64,000 bases of DNA, taken from the NCBI GenBank assembly GCA_017456555.1, contig JAFTJF010000006.1:75103-139102 (forward strand), given 5' to 3'. Below the pieces are notes generated by a model. That model searched no databases, was not told the origin of the DNA, and worked only from the letters and a program-made list of their open reading frames with translations. A program made the position numbers and the translations under genes. Shown here piece by piece: positions 1,966 to 29,726 of the stretch. The DNA is from Clostridia bacterium. GTDB lineage: Bacteria > Bacillota > Clostridia > TANB77 > CAG-508. How positions within the stretch are numbered: the first letter of the stretch is position 1; every line of letters starts with the position of its first letter.

Positions 1966-2385
1966 TTATTTATTTTTATTCATGTACATTTCTAAAATAT
2001 AAACTGCAGATATTGTATCTACAATACCTCTTTTTTTAGTTTTGTTTACATCTAGAAAATTCATAGTTTTGTGAGCAGCAACTGTTGTTAATCTTTCATC
2101 AATTGTTTCAATTTTTAATTTGTTATATTTGCATTTCAATTTATGAATAAACTTTTCTGTAACTTCTGCTCTAATTGTTTTTGTACCATCCATATTATAT
2201 GGCATACCAACAACGATAGTATCTACTTCAGGATATTTTTCTAATATCTCATCTAATCTTCTTAACAAAACTTTGTCATTTCCATTATGAGTTATTGTTT
2301 CTAATCCTTGCGCAGTTATCCCTAAAGCATCTGTTACAGCGATGCCAACTCTACTATCTCCATAATCAATACCTAATGTTCTCAT
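1966..2385 (-). CDS. ruvX: Putative pre-16S rRNA nuclease / Holliday junction resolvase-like protein YqgF (RuvX)
   Basis: The protein starts MRTLGIDYGDSRVGIAVTD, is 139 aa long, and lies in the conserved ireB-ruvX-DUF1292 synteny. Confidence 0.9.
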   Translation of the reverse strand: MRTLGIDYGDSRVGIAVTDALGITAQGLETITHNGNDKVLLRRLDEILEKYPEVDTIVVGMPYNMDGTKTIRAEVTEKFIHKLKCKYNKLKIETIDERLTTVAAHKTMNFLDVNKTKKRGIVDTISAVYILEMYMNKNK

Positions 2386-2391
2386 ATTTAA

Positions 2392-2646
2392 TTAGTCTTC
2401 CAATCCGATGTAATATTTTACCATTTTTTCAAGTAGTTCATCTCTTTCAATTAATCTTATTAAATTTCTAGCATCATTATGGCTAGTAATATAAGTAGGA
2501 TCTCCTGATAAAATATATCCAACGATTTGATTTATTGGATTATACCCTTTTTCTACCAATGCTTGGTATACTTCTTTTAAAATTTCTTTTGCTCTTAGAG
2601 TTTTATCTTTATCTACTTTAAAACTCATTGTCTTATCTATAGCCAT
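2392..2646 (-). CDS. IreB-family regulatory phosphoprotein (UPF0297/DUF965)
   Basis: 84 aa. The sequence [41 protein letters not shown] is characteristic of this family. Confidence 0.85.
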
Positions 2647-2658
2647 ATTCTTTACCTC

Positions 2659-3795
2659 CTAAATATAATTAATTTGATTTTCAGATTTATCTACTGAATC
2701 TAAATATTCTTCTAATTTTTTATTTAATTGTTCAATTCCAGTACCTTTATAATAAGTTGATACTACAAAATTGATTTTTGGAGATGCTGATTTTTCTTCT
2801 TTTAGCTCTCTAACTCTTACTTTTTTACCATTGATTACTTTTACTACTTGAACTTCTTCTGCTTCTTCAACAATCTCAAGTTCTTCCATTTCACGTTTTA
2901 ATTCTTTTAAGAATTCTTCAACACTTGTTTCTTCAACTCCAGAGAATACAATTACAAATTTTGGTCCCATATATCTTACAAAAACATATTGTGCAGCCAT
3001 TTTAGTTTTTACTATATTACTAATTTCTGTAATTATATCATTTCCTATTTGTCTACTTGCTTTTTCATTTATTTCTTCGATGTTTGTAATTTTAAACATA
3101 CAAACTGCTGAAGTTGGATATTTATCAAATGTTCTTTTTGCTTTACTATATAAATATTCTGCTGAATATAATCCTGTAAATTTATCCGTTCTAACAATGT
3201 TTTCCATTGCATCTTGATAAGATATTGTAGATAATACAGAAATTATATTATCTTTTACAACTTCGATTATTGTTGTATCTGTTTTATCAAATGCATGCAT
3301 TCTTCCACTTTCCATTATCCAATATCCAATATAAATATTGTCTATATATAGTGGGAAAAACATTGCTGATTTGGCTCTTCCCATTTCAACTTTTTGATAT
3401 GGAAGTTTTTCATTTTCATTTTCTATTGTTATATATTTAGGGGTAGCTGTGGCAACACTATCTTGGAATATTTCCTCATTGTGTAAGTTTGTTAAAGTTT
3501 CATGATGTAATTTATCTACGTTTGTTGCTTTTATAACATATTCTGCACCATCAAAAACTACAATTGTAGAATATTTTATATCATATTGTTCTATAACTAT
3601 TTCATTAATTTTATTTAACTTAGCCTCTACTGAATCTTCTTCTCCAGCAACTTTCATAAAATCTTGTAAAACAGATAGATTACTTATTTGTTGATTTATA
3701 TTGTTATAAGTATCAATCTTTTTTTGAATATGAATGTTGTACATTATAAGAACTATGATTAGTACAACTAACATTGCGATTATTGCTATTACCAA
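2659..3795 (-). CDS. Membrane-anchored GAF-like protein with a degenerate GGDEF domain
   Basis: N-terminal TM helix (VIAIIAMLVVLIIVLIMY). The GGDEF-type domain opens with DKFTGLYSAEYL, but the active-site pentapeptide reads MGPKF instead of GG(D/E)EF. Confidence 0.6.
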   Translation of the reverse strand: MVIAIIAMLVVLIIVLIMYNIHIQKKIDTYNNINQQISNLSVLQDFMKVAGEEDSVEAKLNKINEIVIEQYDIKYSTIVVFDGAEYVIKATNVDKLHHETLTNLHNEEIFQDSVATATPKYITIENENEKLPYQKVEMGRAKSAMFFPLYIDNIYIGYWIMESGRMHAFDKTDTTIIEVVKDNIISVLSTISYQDAMENIVRTDKFTGLYSAEYLYSKAKRTFDKYPTSAVCMFKITNIEEINEKASRQIGNDIITEISNIVKTKMAAQYVFVRYMGPKFVIVFSGVEETSVEEFLKELKREMEELEIVEEAEEVQVVKVINGKKVRVRELKEEKSASPKINFVVSTYYKGTGIEQLNKKLEEYLDSVDKSENQINYI

Positions 3796-24436: not shown

Positions 24437-27400
24437 TTATAATTTACTCAAAAATTCTTTCGTTTCTTCTAGTATGTTCTTCAAGTCTGTAATCTTAAAA
24501 GTTATATATGGATCTTTTGATGGTGAAAATTTAATTCTATTTCTATACATTTTCATAAGCTTATCAACAATGTCAAAATTAAATTTTTCATTATCAAAAT
24601 AAAAAATAACATTTTCTCTTCTTTGAGCAACTTTTAAAATAGATTTTTCTCTAGATAATATTTTTATTCTAGCAATATCTAATAAATTCTCTACCTCATA
24701 TGGCATTTGTCCAAATCTATCAATTATTTCATCAGTCACATTTTCTATATCTTCTTCATTTTTACATAAAGCAATATTTTGATATACTTCAATTTTTAGT
24801 CCAGCATTTTCAATATAATCTTCAGGAATATAGCTTGTAACATCTAGTTCTATTTGAACATCAATTTCTTCTACTATTTCTTCCCCTCTGATTTCTTTTA
24901 CAACTTCATCTAAAAGTTTACAATACATATCATATCCGATTTGTTCCATATGGCCATGTTGAATTTCTCCCATTAAACTTCCTGCTCCACGAATCTCTAA
25001 ATCTCTCATTGCAATTTTGAAACCAGAACCAAATTCAGTAAATTCTTTTATTGCTTTTAATCTTTTATCTGCTACTTCTGATAATAATTTATCTCTTCTA
25101 TAAGTAATATATGCATATGCTTGTTTTTCTGAACGTCCAACTCTTCCTCTTATTTGATAAAGTTGAGCCAAGCCTAATCTATCAGCATTTTCAACAATTA
25201 TAGTATTTGCATTTGGAATATCAATTCCAGATTCTAATATCGTTGTACAAACTAATACATTACACTTTCCATCAACGAAATCTTGCATAATATTTTCAAG
25301 CTGATTACCAGTCATTTTTCCATGAGCATATTCTACTTTTGCTTCTTCAACAATCTCACTTATTTCTAATGCTTTTTTTTCTATTCCTTCAACATTATTA
25401 AATAAATAAAATACTTGCCCACCTTTTTCAAGCTCACGAGTTATTGCTTCTTTTATAACTTCTTTATCATATTCTAAGACATAAGTTTGAACTGGTTTTC
25501 TGTTTTGTGGTGGTTCATAAATAACAGACATATCTCTCATACCAACTACAGACATATGCAGTGTTCTAGGAATTGGAGTAGCAGTCATAGTTAAAACATC
25601 TATACTGTTTTTCATTTCTTTAATTTTTTCTTTTGCTTTAACACCAAATCTGTGTTCCTCATCTATAATTAAAAGACCTAAGTTTTTAAAATTAACATCT
25701 TTACTTAAAACTCTGTGAGTTCCAACTAATATATCTGTTTCACCAAGTTCTACTCTTTTTAATGTATCTTCTTGTTCTTTTTTAGTTCTAAATCTATTTA
25801 AAAGTTCTATCCTTACTGGATATTCTTTCATTCTATCACGAAAACTTTCATATTGTTGCTGAGCCAAAACTGTTGTTGGAACTAAATAGACAACTTGTTT
25901 TTGGTCCATAACAGATTTAAAAGCAGCTCTTATTGCAACTTCTGTTTTTCCATAACCAACATCTCCGCAAAGAAGTCTATCCATTGGTTTTGGTTTTTCC
26001 ATGTCTTTTTTTACTTCTTCAATACATCTTAATTGATCATCAGTTTCAACATATTTAAAACTATCTTCAAATTCTTGTTGCCAAGGGGTATCTTTTGAAA
26101 AAGCAAAACCTTCCATTTTTTGACGTTTAGCATAAAGCTCTATTAACTCTTCAGCAACTTCTCTTAAATTATTTTTAACTCTTGCTTTTGTTTTATCCCA
26201 TTCTTTAGAACCTAATCTATTTAACCTTGGTCCTATTTTTTCTGGTCCAACATATTTTCTAATATTATCCAAACTATTAGTTGGAATATATAAAATATCA
26301 TCATCTTTATATTTTAATTTTATATAATCTTTTGTAATGCCATCAGCTCTAATAGTATTTACCCCAAGGTATTGACCAATACCGTGAGCTTTATGAACAA
26401 TAAAATCTCCTTCTTTTAAATCAGCAAAAACTACTACTTCGCCTTCTTTAAATGCGGAAGGTGTTTTTAGTCTTTTTTTAGGCTTGCTTTCAAAAAGCTC
26501 TTCTGTTGATATTACTAAAAGCTCTGCATCATAAAATTCAAATCCCGCAGAAAAAGCTCCTGGTGTGATGTTTACCACTCCAAGAGTTAAGTCTTCTTCT
26601 AAAAAATCTGTATAGACATTTGGTATTTCTTTTTCTAATAGTAAGGTCGATAGTTTACGACAATTTTCCGTGCTTCCGCCTAGAATTACTGTTTGTTTCC
26701 CTCTGTTAATTGCTTCTTGTAGTTCCTGAAACAGTAAATCCATTGAACTACGAAAAAAGTTGACCTCCCTATAGCTAAAGCTATATCCGTTTCTTTTTGC
26801 ATGCATACTTTCTTTGTCCACAAATCCAATGTCTTGTTTTTCTAAATAAACAACTTGTTTTTTAGTTAAACCTTCAGAGAATTTAATATAATCTTTCATC
26901 TCTGTTAAGATTCCTGGAACTATTTTATTTTTCTCAGTTAAATCTTTCATTAAATGAGTATTATCTTTTGTTATATTTTCCGCTCTTGCTTTAATTTTCG
27001 CAATTTCATCTATAAATACAATACAATCATTTTCTAAATAATCTAGTAATGTATCTGTTTCTGTGTAGAAACAATCAAAATATTTATCAATTTTTGTTAA
27101 AAATTCTCCATTTTTAATTTGATAAATATCATCTTTTACTTTTTCTTTAACAGAATTTGGATATATTTTATCCCCAATTCTTTCGCAAACTGTGTCTATG
27201 TCATCTGCTAACAAGAATTCATATGAAGGATAAATTTCTATTTTCTCTAACATTTTTACTGTTCTTTGAGTTGTTAAACTGAATTTTCTTATTGAGTCGA
27301 TTTCATCTCCCCAAAATTCAATTCTCACACCACTATTTTCAGAAGTAGCAATATCTACTATTCCACCTCTTACACTGAACTGACCTTTTCCTTCTATTAA

Positions 27401-27892
27401 ATCATATCTTTCATATCCAAGTAGAACTAGTTTTTCTTTTAAATCTTCTAAATCAACTTGCTCTCCTACTTTTAATTCCATTACATTTTTATATAGTTTT
27501 TCTTTAGTAATCATTTTTTGCATTGCAGCTTCTATTGTCGTTACAACAATTTTCTTTTCGTTTTTTACTAAAGCATTTAATACAGATATTCTTTTAAATA
27601 GTGTATCTTTACTTTCTGCTACATAGTCAAAACTTATTACATCTCTTTTAGGAAAAAATCTTACTTTTTCACCAAAGAAATCTAAATCTTTTATTATTCT
27701 TTTTGCTTGCATTTCATTATAAGTAATAATACAAATTGGCTTTTCTGAATAAAATTTTGTTGAATAAGCCATATGGATTTTTCCCACATCAGTTAAACCT
27801 GATAGCATAATTGGTGTAGTGCCTTTATTAAGCTCAAATAAATAGTCATTAAACTTTTTAACATTTGGTACTGTCTTGATTAATGAATTCAT
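24437..27892 (-). CDS. mfd: Transcription-repair coupling factor
   Basis: 1151 aa. CarD-like domain, DEAD/H helicase motifs (GDVGYGKTEVA, DEEHRFG) and a TRCF C-terminus. Confidence 0.95.
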   Translation of the reverse strand: MNSLIKTVPNVKKFNDYLFELNKGTTPIMLSGLTDVGKIHMAYSTKFYSEKPICIITYNEMQAKRIIKDLDFFGEKVRFFPKRDVISFDYVAESKDTLFKRISVLNALVKNEKKIVVTTIEAAMQKMITKEKLYKNVMELKVGEQVDLEDLKEKLVLLGYERYDLIEGKGQFSVRGGIVDIATSENSGVRIEFWGDEIDSIRKFSLTTQRTVKMLEKIEIYPSYEFLLADDIDTVCERIGDKIYPNSVKEKVKDDIYQIKNGEFLTKIDKYFDCFYTETDTLLDYLENDCIVFIDEIAKIKARAENITKDNTHLMKDLTEKNKIVPGILTEMKDYIKFSEGLTKKQVVYLEKQDIGFVDKESMHAKRNGYSFSYREVNFFRSSMDLLFQELQEAINRGKQTVILGGSTENCRKLSTLLLEKEIPNVYTDFLEEDLTLGVVNITPGAFSAGFEFYDAELLVISTEELFESKPKKRLKTPSAFKEGEVVVFADLKEGDFIVHKAHGIGQYLGVNTIRADGITKDYIKLKYKDDDILYIPTNSLDNIRKYVGPEKIGPRLNRLGSKEWDKTKARVKNNLREVAEELIELYAKRQKMEGFAFSKDTPWQQEFEDSFKYVETDDQLRCIEEVKKDMEKPKPMDRLLCGDVGYGKTEVAIRAAFKSVMDQKQVVYLVPTTVLAQQQYESFRDRMKEYPVRIELLNRFRTKKEQEDTLKRVELGETDILVGTHRVLSKDVNFKNLGLLIIDEEHRFGVKAKEKIKEMKNSIDVLTMTATPIPRTLHMSVVGMRDMSVIYEPPQNRKPVQTYVLEYDKEVIKEAITRELEKGGQVFYLFNNVEGIEKKALEISEIVEEAKVEYAHGKMTGNQLENIMQDFVDGKCNVLVCTTILESGIDIPNANTIIVENADRLGLAQLYQIRGRVGRSEKQAYAYITYRRDKLLSEVADKRLKAIKEFTEFGSGFKIAMRDLEIRGAGSLMGEIQHGHMEQIGYDMYCKLLDEVVKEIRGEEIVEEIDVQIELDVTSYIPEDYIENAGLKIEVYQNIALCKNEEDIENVTDEIIDRFGQMPYEVENLLDIARIKILSREKSILKVAQRRENVIFYFDNEKFNFDIVDKLMKMYRNRIKFSPSKDPYITFKITDLKNILEETKEFLSKL

Positions 27893-28086
27893 TTTTCATT
27901 CCTTATATTATTATATTTAGGTTTTTAAAAGGTTACCTATAAACCTTTTGTATATTTATATATAATATATATTTCCTTCTTTATATATTATTTGTAAAAT
28001 GCTACACCATTATATACCATATTTTTCTTAATTGCAAGGAATATCAAGGATTTTAACGTTTTTTATTTATAAATTTTATATAATAA

Positions 28087-28122
28087 TAAAAAGCTCGCTT
28101 CAAAGAAGAAGCAAGCTTTTTA
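28087..28122. terminator. Hairpin terminator in the mfd/ylbJ intergenic region
   Basis: AAGCTCGCTTC ... GAAGCAAGCTT stem flanked by A- and T-runs. Confidence 0.5.
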
Positions 28123-28179
28123 TAGTGCTTTTAATACACTGATTTGCGTTTGGTACTAATAGTTTCTGCTTTATAAAAG

Positions 28180-28460
28180 TTTTCTGTATGCAATGGGTTG
28201 ATATTATCCAAAAAAACATATTCAATTGTAGGTTATTTTGCTATTACTTTACCACATTCTTTTCATCGTCATTACTTTCAGCAAACCGCTTGTTGATTAA
28301 ATCGCTAATCTGCTTATTTAAAGCAAAAACAACAAAAACCAGCAAAGCAATGATTATAAGTAAGACCGCGATAATGATTTTGGCCAAAGCCAACTCGAAT
28401 TCTACCATCATCATATTTTCATTTTCCTCCCGTCGTTACTCAAATATTGCATACAGAAAA
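28180..28460. repeat. Perfect 15-bp inverted repeat pair bracketing a small ORF
   Basis: TTTTCTGTATGCAAT at 28180-28194 and its exact reverse complement ATTGCATACAGAAAA at 28446-28460. Confidence 0.9.
28244..28414 (-). CDS. 56-aa hydrophobic peptide (single TM helix plus charged tail), candidate type I toxin-like or small membrane protein
   Basis: It is below the ORF-track size cutoff. GGAGG lies upstream. The peptide is MMMVEFELALAKIIIAVLLIIIALLVFVVFALNKQISDLINKRFAESNDDEKNVVK. Codon usage is GC-richer (GCG, GTC, CTG, CGG). Confidence 0.5.
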   Translation of the reverse strand: MMMVEFELALAKIIIAVLLIIIALLVFVVFALNKQISDLINKRFAESNDDEKNVVK

Positions 28461-28727
28461 ACGGCACTCTCTTAGATATCACATGCATTTCACATGTATT
28501 AAAAGTAAAAATTACCAAGTATGAGATTATATTCATAAATTCTCTTGCTAATTTTCACTTGGAAGTTTAATTATAACACTTTTCAATAATTTATTCAAGT
28601 ATTGACTTTTTTATATGATTATCAAATTCATATTCAAAAATTATTTGTAAAACAAACCTTTACAGTTCATTCATAAAACAAGCTTTGTTGAATATATATT
28701 ATCATAGCATTAGTATTTGGAGGAATT

Positions 28728-29726
28728 ATGAATTTTTTAGTAATCAATTTAAAAAAATATTTTTTCACAGTAATTTTTATACTGTTTACAATATCTCTTT
28801 TATTCTTTTCAGATAATAACTTAATAGCTGCCCAAGAAGGACTTGCTCTTTGGTCCACTAAAGTTCTTCCAAGCTTGTTTCCTTTTTTTGTTGCAACAGA
28901 GATTCTATGCAAAACAAATTTTGCTTATATTTTAGGCAGGTTTTTAAATAAATTTATGAGACCTATTTTTAATGTTCCTGGAGAAAGTTCCTTAGCTTTG
29001 ATTCTCGGAACAATCAGTGGGTATCCAGTGGGTGCTAAAGTAGTTTGCAATTTAAAACAAGAAAAAGTTATTTCAAAAATTGAAGCAGAAAGATTAATTG
29101 CTTACACAAATAATTCTGGTCCTTTATTTATTTTAGCAACTGTTGGTATATCTTTGTTTAATAACAAACGACTAGGAATAATCTTACTTGTATCACATAT
29201 TATTTCAGCAATTTTAGTGGGATATTGTTTTAAATATTGGAAAAAAAATAAATTTGAAATTACTTTTAAAGAATCTAAATTCAACTCAAAAAGCTTACCG
29301 ATAAAACTTTCAAATTTTGGTGAAATATTAGGAAATTCAATAAAATCTGCAATTTCTAACATACTTTCTATTGGTGGATTTATTGTACTTTTTTCGGTAA
29401 TATTATCAATTTTAAATACTTCTGGAATAATTAATCTTATCTCTAGCTTTTTTTATTTTTTTGGTATTCCACAAGAGATTTCATCAGCTCTATTTACTGG
29501 AATTATAGAGCTAACAAATGGTGTAAATCTTACTGCAAACTTATATAAAAATTATAATTTACTTAGTATTTTGCTAACCTCTTTTTTACTAGGTTTTGGT
29601 GGAATCTCAGTACTTTTGCAAGTATATAGCATTATTTCAAAAGAAAATATTTCTATAAAACCTTATTTTTATGGAAAACTACTTCAAGGAATATTTTCAG
29701 TAGTTTTTACATTTATACTACTTTAA
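28728..29726 (+). CDS. ylbJ: Sporulation integral membrane protein YlbJ (nucleoside-recognition domain family)
   Basis: Contains LALWSTKVLPSLFPFFVATEIL and GTISGYPVGAKVV. Confidence 0.75.
   Translation: MNFLVINLKKYFFTVIFILFTISLLFFSDNNLIAAQEGLALWSTKVLPSLFPFFVATEILCKTNFAYILGRFLNKFMRPIFNVPGESSLALILGTISGYPVGAKVVCNLKQEKVISKIEAERLIAYTNNSGPLFILATVGISLFNNKRLGIILLVSHIISAILVGYCFKYWKKNKFEITFKESKFNSKSLPIKLSNFGEILGNSIKSAISNILSIGGFIVLFSVILSILNTSGIINLISSFFYFFGIPQEISSALFTGIIELTNGVNLTANLYKNYNLLSILLTSFLLGFGGISVLLQVYSIISKENISIKPYFYGKLLQGIFSVVFTFILL

Follow-up and report, generated by a model that had tools for sequence, protein, structure and literature searches.

The 281-bp segment at 28180-28460 of the window (the whole 64,000-nucleotide stretch of DNA analysed here) is probably the core of a stand-alone, monocistronic mRNA of about 480 nt (~28563..28084, minus strand) that is closed by pairing between its UTRs and encodes a small single-pass membrane protein. 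In the arrangement we propose, a hairpin at the 5' end (P1) would be followed by a helix (helix A) whose partner precedes the terminator and then, further in, by a second helix (helix B). Imperfect pairing would fill the interval between the two helices, and the resulting long, interrupted UTR duplex would enclose the Shine-Dalgarno sequence (SD) and the ORF. The unit adds a hitherto undescribed member, confined to one genus, to the UTR-closed small-protein mRNAs. It provides a covariation-supported case of paired UTRs around a small membrane-protein ORF in Clostridia for which almost no RNA biology is known. Its features, in the order of transcription, are as follows.

28570..28598, minus strand: promoter with a -35 TTGAAT, a 17-nt spacer and an extended -10 TGTTATAAT (consensus scan, 10/12 matches plus the TG)
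28504..28560, minus strand: P1, the 5'-terminal hairpin, 3-4 nt from the predicted start, with the conserved AGAGAAUUUAUGAAUAUAAUCUC in its loop (MFE folds)
28495..28505, minus strand: 5' strand of helix A, CUUUUAAUACA, directly after P1, a perfect 11-nt complement of 28128-28138
28446..28460, minus strand: 5' arm of helix B and right-hand repeat arm, UUUUCUGUAUGCAAU, 14 nt upstream of the SD (repeat search, folds, covariation)
28426..28431, minus strand: Shine-Dalgarno GGGAGG, 11 nt before the first of three ATGs (sequence)
28244..28414, minus strand: ORF whose 56-aa product has a single TM helix and, at the C-terminus, a charged tail (translation, dN/dS, homologue search)
28180..28194, minus strand: 3' arm of helix B, AUUGCAUACAGAAAA, 49 nt after the stop codon, the left-hand repeat arm (repeat search, covariation)
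28128..28138, minus strand: 3' strand of helix A, UGUAUUAAAAG, a few nt before the terminator (repeat search, folds, covariation)
28086..28123, minus strand: intrinsic terminator, a 16-bp stem plus U run, which separates the unit from the mfd promoter (terminator call)

The predicted transcription start lies near 28563, with a predicted leader of ~150 nt and a predicted 3' UTR of ~160 nt. Every family member read carries the promoter TTGAAw-17-TGyTATAAT (the -10 is also written TGnTATAAT). The unit stands between Mfd (24437..27892, minus strand) and a Gate-domain, YlbJ-type membrane protein (28728..29726, plus strand), and we take it to be monocistronic because the mfd promoter (28037..28009) comes after its terminator. 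The terminator stem covaries at 9/14 pairs in a 10-sequence test. Rfam holds no family for the unit, and a sub-threshold Thr_leader match covers the terminator hairpin only. P1 and the U-run were considered as an attenuator and rejected: the U-run is taken up by P1, as its 3' strand, and by helix A, as its 5' strand. A first-pass annotation made from the sequence had described the spacer segment as a compositional island. Its G+C is indeed higher, at 0.29-0.36 across 28200-28500 vs 0.15-0.23 in the flanks, but this is the coding-like composition also seen in the neighbouring genes and not a foreign island.

The same annotation had placed the ORF, its SD and its translation exactly where we find them (28244..28414, minus strand; GGGAGG at 28431..28426). 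The product, MMMVEFELALAKIIIAVLLIIIALLVFVVFALNKQISDLINKRFAESNDDEKNVVK, is designed as a single hydrophobic helix of ~25 residues followed by a charged tail. Among the five members with 56 codons, dN/dS is 0.16-0.62 at a dS of 0.7-1.2; by this pattern of substitution the 56-aa ORF is a real gene under purifying selection. The SD, the start region, the TM segment, an ALNKQI-like motif and the charged tail are conserved across homologues, and GGAGG or GGAG is kept 6-11 nt 5' of the start codon in all family members. Longer relatives of 77 aa and 114 aa have long charged tails. In aligned relatives the UTRs and leader are 87-91% identical vs 73-78% for the CDS, and the UTRs evolve far more slowly than the synonymous sites of the ORF. 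The peptide has no match above threshold to known families in Pfam, NCBIfam, PADLOC, PHROGs or PDB.

Two other frames were examined and set aside. A plus-strand ORF of 95 aa (28188..28475), antisense to the whole small gene, is closed or out of phase in relatives; long antisense frames resembling it occur in some of them, with differing phases. A 41-aa leader ORF (28536..28411, minus strand) begins inside the P1 loop, and its TGA overlaps the main start codons. The corresponding frames in relatives stop after 5-20 codons or have no ATG, so it does not qualify as a conserved uORF.

The arms that define the segment form a perfect 15-nt inverted repeat, with TTTTCTGTATGCAAT at 28180-28194 and its exact complement at 28446-28460, as first described. 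When the 835-nt mfd/ylbJ spacer was shuffled 200 times with dinucleotides preserved, the longest inverted repeat reached 14 nt; as 0/200 shuffles reach 15 nt, the repeat is not a chance product of AT-rich DNA. The predicted ~480-nt RNA folds with an MFE of -124.6 kcal/mol (z = -4.9; 0/100 shuffles equally stable), and the MFE fold of the full transcript contains P1, helix A, helix B and the terminator. In the 10 relatives folded first, helix A formed in all and helix B in 8. A hairpin at the position of P1 appears in the folds of all members, though weak in one (L073), and its shape is kept while its stem sequences vary (AAGUGAAAAUUA/UAAUUUUUACUU, AAGCAGAAAU/AUUUUUGCUU, UGCCA/UGGCA and UGCUA/UAGCA). 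By RNAduplex, additional imperfect pairs join the 5' and 3' UTRs, the leader after P1 pairing with essentially the whole 3' UTR at -17 to -34 kcal/mol in 15 members. The predicted UTR duplex is thus long and interrupted, and the SD and ORF would therefore sit in a large enclosed loop.

To assess covariation, the UTRs of 14 distinct members were joined and aligned with MAFFT, and the alignment was left unfitted. Standard pairs form in 90.3% of the cells of helices A and B, vs 35-57% after a shift of the 3' partners by 1-3 columns. Compensatory double changes occur at 8/25 pairs of the two helices (24 cells), and none of 500 shuffles reached the observed pairing or covariation score. A test on 10 sequences, with P1 and the terminator included, agreed with this. 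Helix A was recovered in 15/15 members, and helix B or an equivalent in 13/14 members having a 3' UTR, by an automatic and unbiased helix finder; the helix B arms of L015 are mismatched and do not reach its cut-off. Among relatives the 5' arm of helix B differs (UUUUCUGUAUGCAAU in the window, then UUCUGCAUACA, AAUUUUCUACU + CUAUUACAA, AAAUUUUCUACU + UAUUGCAG and AAUUUUCUACAUACAG), each time with a matching 3' arm:

Window: 5' arm TTTTCTGTATGCAAT; 3' arm ATTGCATACAGAAAA
L006: 5' arm TTCTGCATACA; 3' arm TGTATGCAGAA
L022: 5' arm AATTTTCTACT + CTATTACAA; 3' arm AGTAGAAAATT + TTGTAATAG
L067: 5' arm AAATTTTCTACT + TATTGCAG; 3' arm AGTAGAAAATTT + CTGCAATA
L222: 5' arm AATTTTCTACATACAG; 3' arm CTGTGTGTAGAAAATT

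Across the aligned relatives, then, the complementarity of the UTRs is maintained by compensatory change, and the arms behave as the 5'-3' closure that had been suggested for them. Helix A pairs in 96% of its cells (14 sequences) and is nearly invariant in sequence, which hints at a role beyond pairing, such as a protein or RNase site.

About 16 relatives share this layout. All are single-copy, adjoin ylbJ and were found in one genus of uncultured gut Clostridia, in which an RNA model found the unit in 8/75 species-level genomes, one copy each. A word-indexed search added three close homologues on short metagenome contigs, and an exhaustive HMMER scan of 1.84 billion cluster representatives returned 13 clusters only, all of the same type and of 49-108 aa; the four that were examined with their DNA had an identical layout. 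Other searches gave nothing related: an order-wide protein profile search found no credible match, only TM-helix noise inside larger proteins; a pattern scan of genome contigs gave chance matches only, the RNA model rejecting 79/80 and the remaining one lying inside a coding region; two metagenome pattern scans returned nothing related; and the phage and plasmid collections searched held no homologues.

Every instance examined sits on the promoter side of ylbJ, with mfd downstream of the unit, sometimes beyond an inserted ECF-sigma gene pair. A gene for a 174-aa sigma-70 family (ECF-type) protein and a following gene lie downstream in L061 (G050, 2053-3076), L063 (G049, 2011-3073), L222 and L226, and in G050 no mfd was found in the ~1.5 kb upstream of ylbJ. 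What adjoins the unit on the right is thus variable, and ylbJ on the left is constant. Many members of the genus have short ylbJ-mfd spacers of 174-436 nt that lack the unit. The distribution fits an old element with repeated loss, because the YlbJ identity of carriers to the window spans 55%-87% while several non-carriers reach 81-82%. Among the variants, 77-aa forms occur in three genomes, and a 114-aa form (G083) keeps P1 and helix A and has no helix B. Elsewhere, the ylbJ-mfd spacer of L075 (G084) encodes a 110-aa protein with a TM segment and charged tail behind a P1-like leader (AAGAAGATTATTAATATAATCTT), with no recognisable helix A or B; this protein may be a distant family relative that lost the UTR closure.

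Single copy number and a fixed locus weigh heavily against the possibility, raised at first, that the segment is a miniature mobile element (MITE) with a chance ORF. Perfect 15-nt, terminal-looking repeats and a G+C above that of the flanks are what such an element might present. However, the genome (1.67 Mb, 88.5% complete) holds one copy each of the unit and its arms, relatives have one per genome, and the locus is always ylbJ. No target-site duplication is seen in the flanks (...ATAAAAG and ACGGCAC...), in agreement with the first reading. The arms differ among relatives yet stay complementary, and purifying selection acts on the ORF. Conservation also reaches beyond the arms, taking in the promoter, P1, helix A and the terminator. 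We give the MITE reading next to no credence and reject it on copy number, fixed locus and the lack of target-site duplication.

The alignments do not by themselves tell on which strand the pairing acts. A wobble test with unbiased scoring gave 5 G.U vs 4 A.C and favoured no strand, and the duplex energies of the sense and antisense strands do not differ systematically. We infer from context that the pairing acts in the sense RNA, because the helices border directly on P1 and the terminator, pairing runs along the UTRs as several interrupted helices, and the ~16 instances share one orientation. A DNA switch, with the nested repeats as recombinase sites at which the SD-ORF segment would invert relative to the promoter, might also be read into a gene flanked by inverted repeats with its promoter outside them. 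Arm covariation is expected of recombining repeats as well, the wobble counts do not favour RNA, and a separate 87-bp repeat-flanked spacer segment is inverted between two relatives. Yet ~16/16 assembled instances have the same ORF orientation relative to promoter and terminator, no recombinase gene adjoins any locus examined, and several interrupted helices along the whole UTRs, abutting P1 and the terminator, are typical of RNA. We consider such a switch highly improbable.

A sense mRNA with paired UTRs raises the question of toxin-antitoxin function. Closure of the 5' and 3' ends is a named design of type I toxin mRNAs, as in the fbi element of hok and the long-distance interaction of AapA1. 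A 5' stem-loop, a terminator and a 5'-3' long-distance interaction are the published descriptors of such mRNAs (PMC8594479), and the 'upstream helix' of fst is a case of such pairing (PMC7472228). All three descriptors are found in the window mRNA, as predicted by folding and covariation. Like hok/Sok, H. pylori aapA1/IsoA1 and E. faecalis par RNA I, the unit is predicted to encode a small hydrophobic single-TM peptide on an mRNA with a stem-loop at its 5' end, a long structured leader and a terminator, and to pair a 5' segment with one just upstream of the terminator; all are stand-alone, intergenic and patchily distributed (PMC8594479, PMC7472228, PMC5416894). Unlike these systems, the window unit has no detected antisense antitoxin gene, no conserved anti-SD and no sequence similarity to known toxins, its relatives reach 77-114 aa, and it is single-copy at a fixed locus. 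The Clostridioides difficile pairs CD2517.1-RCd8 and CD0956.2-RCd10, also from Clostridia, resemble it in their hydrophobic N-terminal part, charged C-terminal tail and long 5' UTRs; the toxins CD2517.1, CD0956.2 and their relatives have 50-53 aa (PMC6563280). They have mapped convergent antisense RNAs and lie in prophages or beside CRISPR arrays, whereas the window unit shows neither an antisense signal nor a mobile-element context and is not homologous to them in sequence.

A complete type I module, in which the peptide would be a membrane toxin and an undetected cis antisense RNA over the 3' UTR or leader would block translation or trigger decay, is in our view somewhat doubtful. Besides the peptide and its charged tail, the strong conserved promoter, the long structured leader and the 5'-3' closure agree with it, as do the design and long 5' UTRs shared with the C. 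difficile toxins (PMC6563280). The greater conservation of the UTRs than of the CDS could also be produced by an overlapping antisense gene, and the sporadic distribution (8/75 genus genomes, with the ylbJ-mfd spacers of many relatives short and empty) speaks for it too. The antisense side, however, is not borne out. In the 3' region, no antisense promoter keeps its position from one family member to the next. The TGgTACTAAT element first put forward for that role, which reads TGGTACTAAT at 28151-28160 and not at about 28158-28166, is kept only by the closest relatives. Within P1, 7 members carry a recurrent antisense site that looks like a promoter, but the version found in the window's clade is CATAAA, without the essential last T. 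We saw no conserved antisense terminator, and no locus elsewhere in the genome is complementary in trans to the transcript above chance. Toxin families in Pfam, NCBIfam, PADLOC and PHROGs gave no match, and phages and plasmids gave no homologues. The SD, too, has no conserved partner, with a mean P(unpaired) of 0.51 over 16 full-length mRNAs. Of the original type I toxin-like assignment, the sequence design of the peptide and the mRNA layout fit. A conserved antisense promoter is missing, and, in contrast to hok, sequestration of the SD is not consistent.

Whether or not an antisense RNA exists, the peptide itself may be an actual toxin, which by analogy with known systems is a tentative possibility. 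It is plausible because of the peptide design, the strong invariant promoter, the tight constraint on the UTRs and the patchy distribution. We stop short of favouring it because the antitoxin is missing, the SD is free, the relatives are long-tailed (77-114 aa is long for a type I toxin) and the single locus is fixed. If the peptide is toxic, the unit would represent a new type I toxin family, with an unusual antitoxin or none at all; with a non-toxic peptide, 5'/3' UTR control in the style of hbs and icaR would extend to a small membrane protein.

In icaR, the 3' UTR pairs with the mRNA's own 5' UTR and thereby controls translation and decay, and it carries an anti-SD that pairs directly with the SD. 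The predicted window helices, unlike those of icaR, lie upstream of the SD, which is not consistently paired. For S. aureus icaR, control of translation by 5'/3' UTR pairing is described in the literature (PMC3868564). In the B. subtilis hbs mRNA, a long-range 5'UTR/3'UTR helix of ~14 bp modulates RNase Y cleavage (PMC5737220). Like hbs, the window unit is a Firmicute monocistronic mRNA with a structured leader and a long-range 5'UTR/3'UTR helix, here predicted; unlike hbs, which encodes an abundant DNA-binding protein, it has two nested helices with intervening pairs around a small membrane-protein ORF. Judged by covariation, its UTR-UTR pairing has evolutionary support and is of the hbs/icaR type.

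The preferred reading, a UTR-closed mRNA for a small membrane protein, would make the pairing a control on protein yield: both RNA ends would be shielded from RNases and the ribosome-binding region gated. Setting mRNA stability and ribosome access is the most likely function of the pairing. A more specific scheme is suggested by the window's clade only, in which the 5' arm of helix B (UUUUCU) pairs with GGAAAA of the SD region once the 3' UTR is taken away. There the SD has a predicted P(unpaired) of 0.6-0.85 in the full-length RNA and of 0.1-0.2 without the 3' UTR, and other clades show no such effect. The mRNA could then be that of a self-gated toxin without an antitoxin, the 5' arm of helix B (UUUUCU...) acting as an anti-SD in nascent or 3'-damaged RNA until freed by an intact 3' UTR (...AGAAAA). 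The integrity or processing of the 3' end, and not an antisense RNA, would license or trigger translation of the peptide. On these modelled folds we judge this scheme unlikely.

The RNA might also have two functions, encoding the peptide and base-pairing with other mRNAs through unpaired conserved segments (the P1 loop and ACGCAAA in the 3' UTR). Pairing alone does not require the degree of conservation seen in the P1 loop AGAGAAUUaUgAaUAUAAUCUC and in parts of the 3' UTR, and the UTRs evolve far more slowly than synonymous sites. Against this, the transcript has no extended complementarity to other loci of the genome, no Rfam family and no identified target, and we hold a dual-function RNA to be improbable. 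Under any of these RNA-based readings, the promoter, leader and arms make up a compact natural cassette whose logic is testable by a few compensatory mutants.

Finally, the 87-bp segment mentioned above, whose sequence is unrelated to the window's unit, is a G+C-richer stretch upstream of ylbJ in two relatives, L076 (G069, 88-196) and L077 (G071, 110-218; both in reverse-complement coordinates), where it lies in opposite orientations. It is flanked by 11-nt inverted repeats, TTATTAGTGAT / ATCACTwATAA, and the two copies are identical at 76/87 positions when one is reverse-complemented vs 43/87 when both are read in the same direction. The segment could be an inverton or else a small element that was inserted in both directions.
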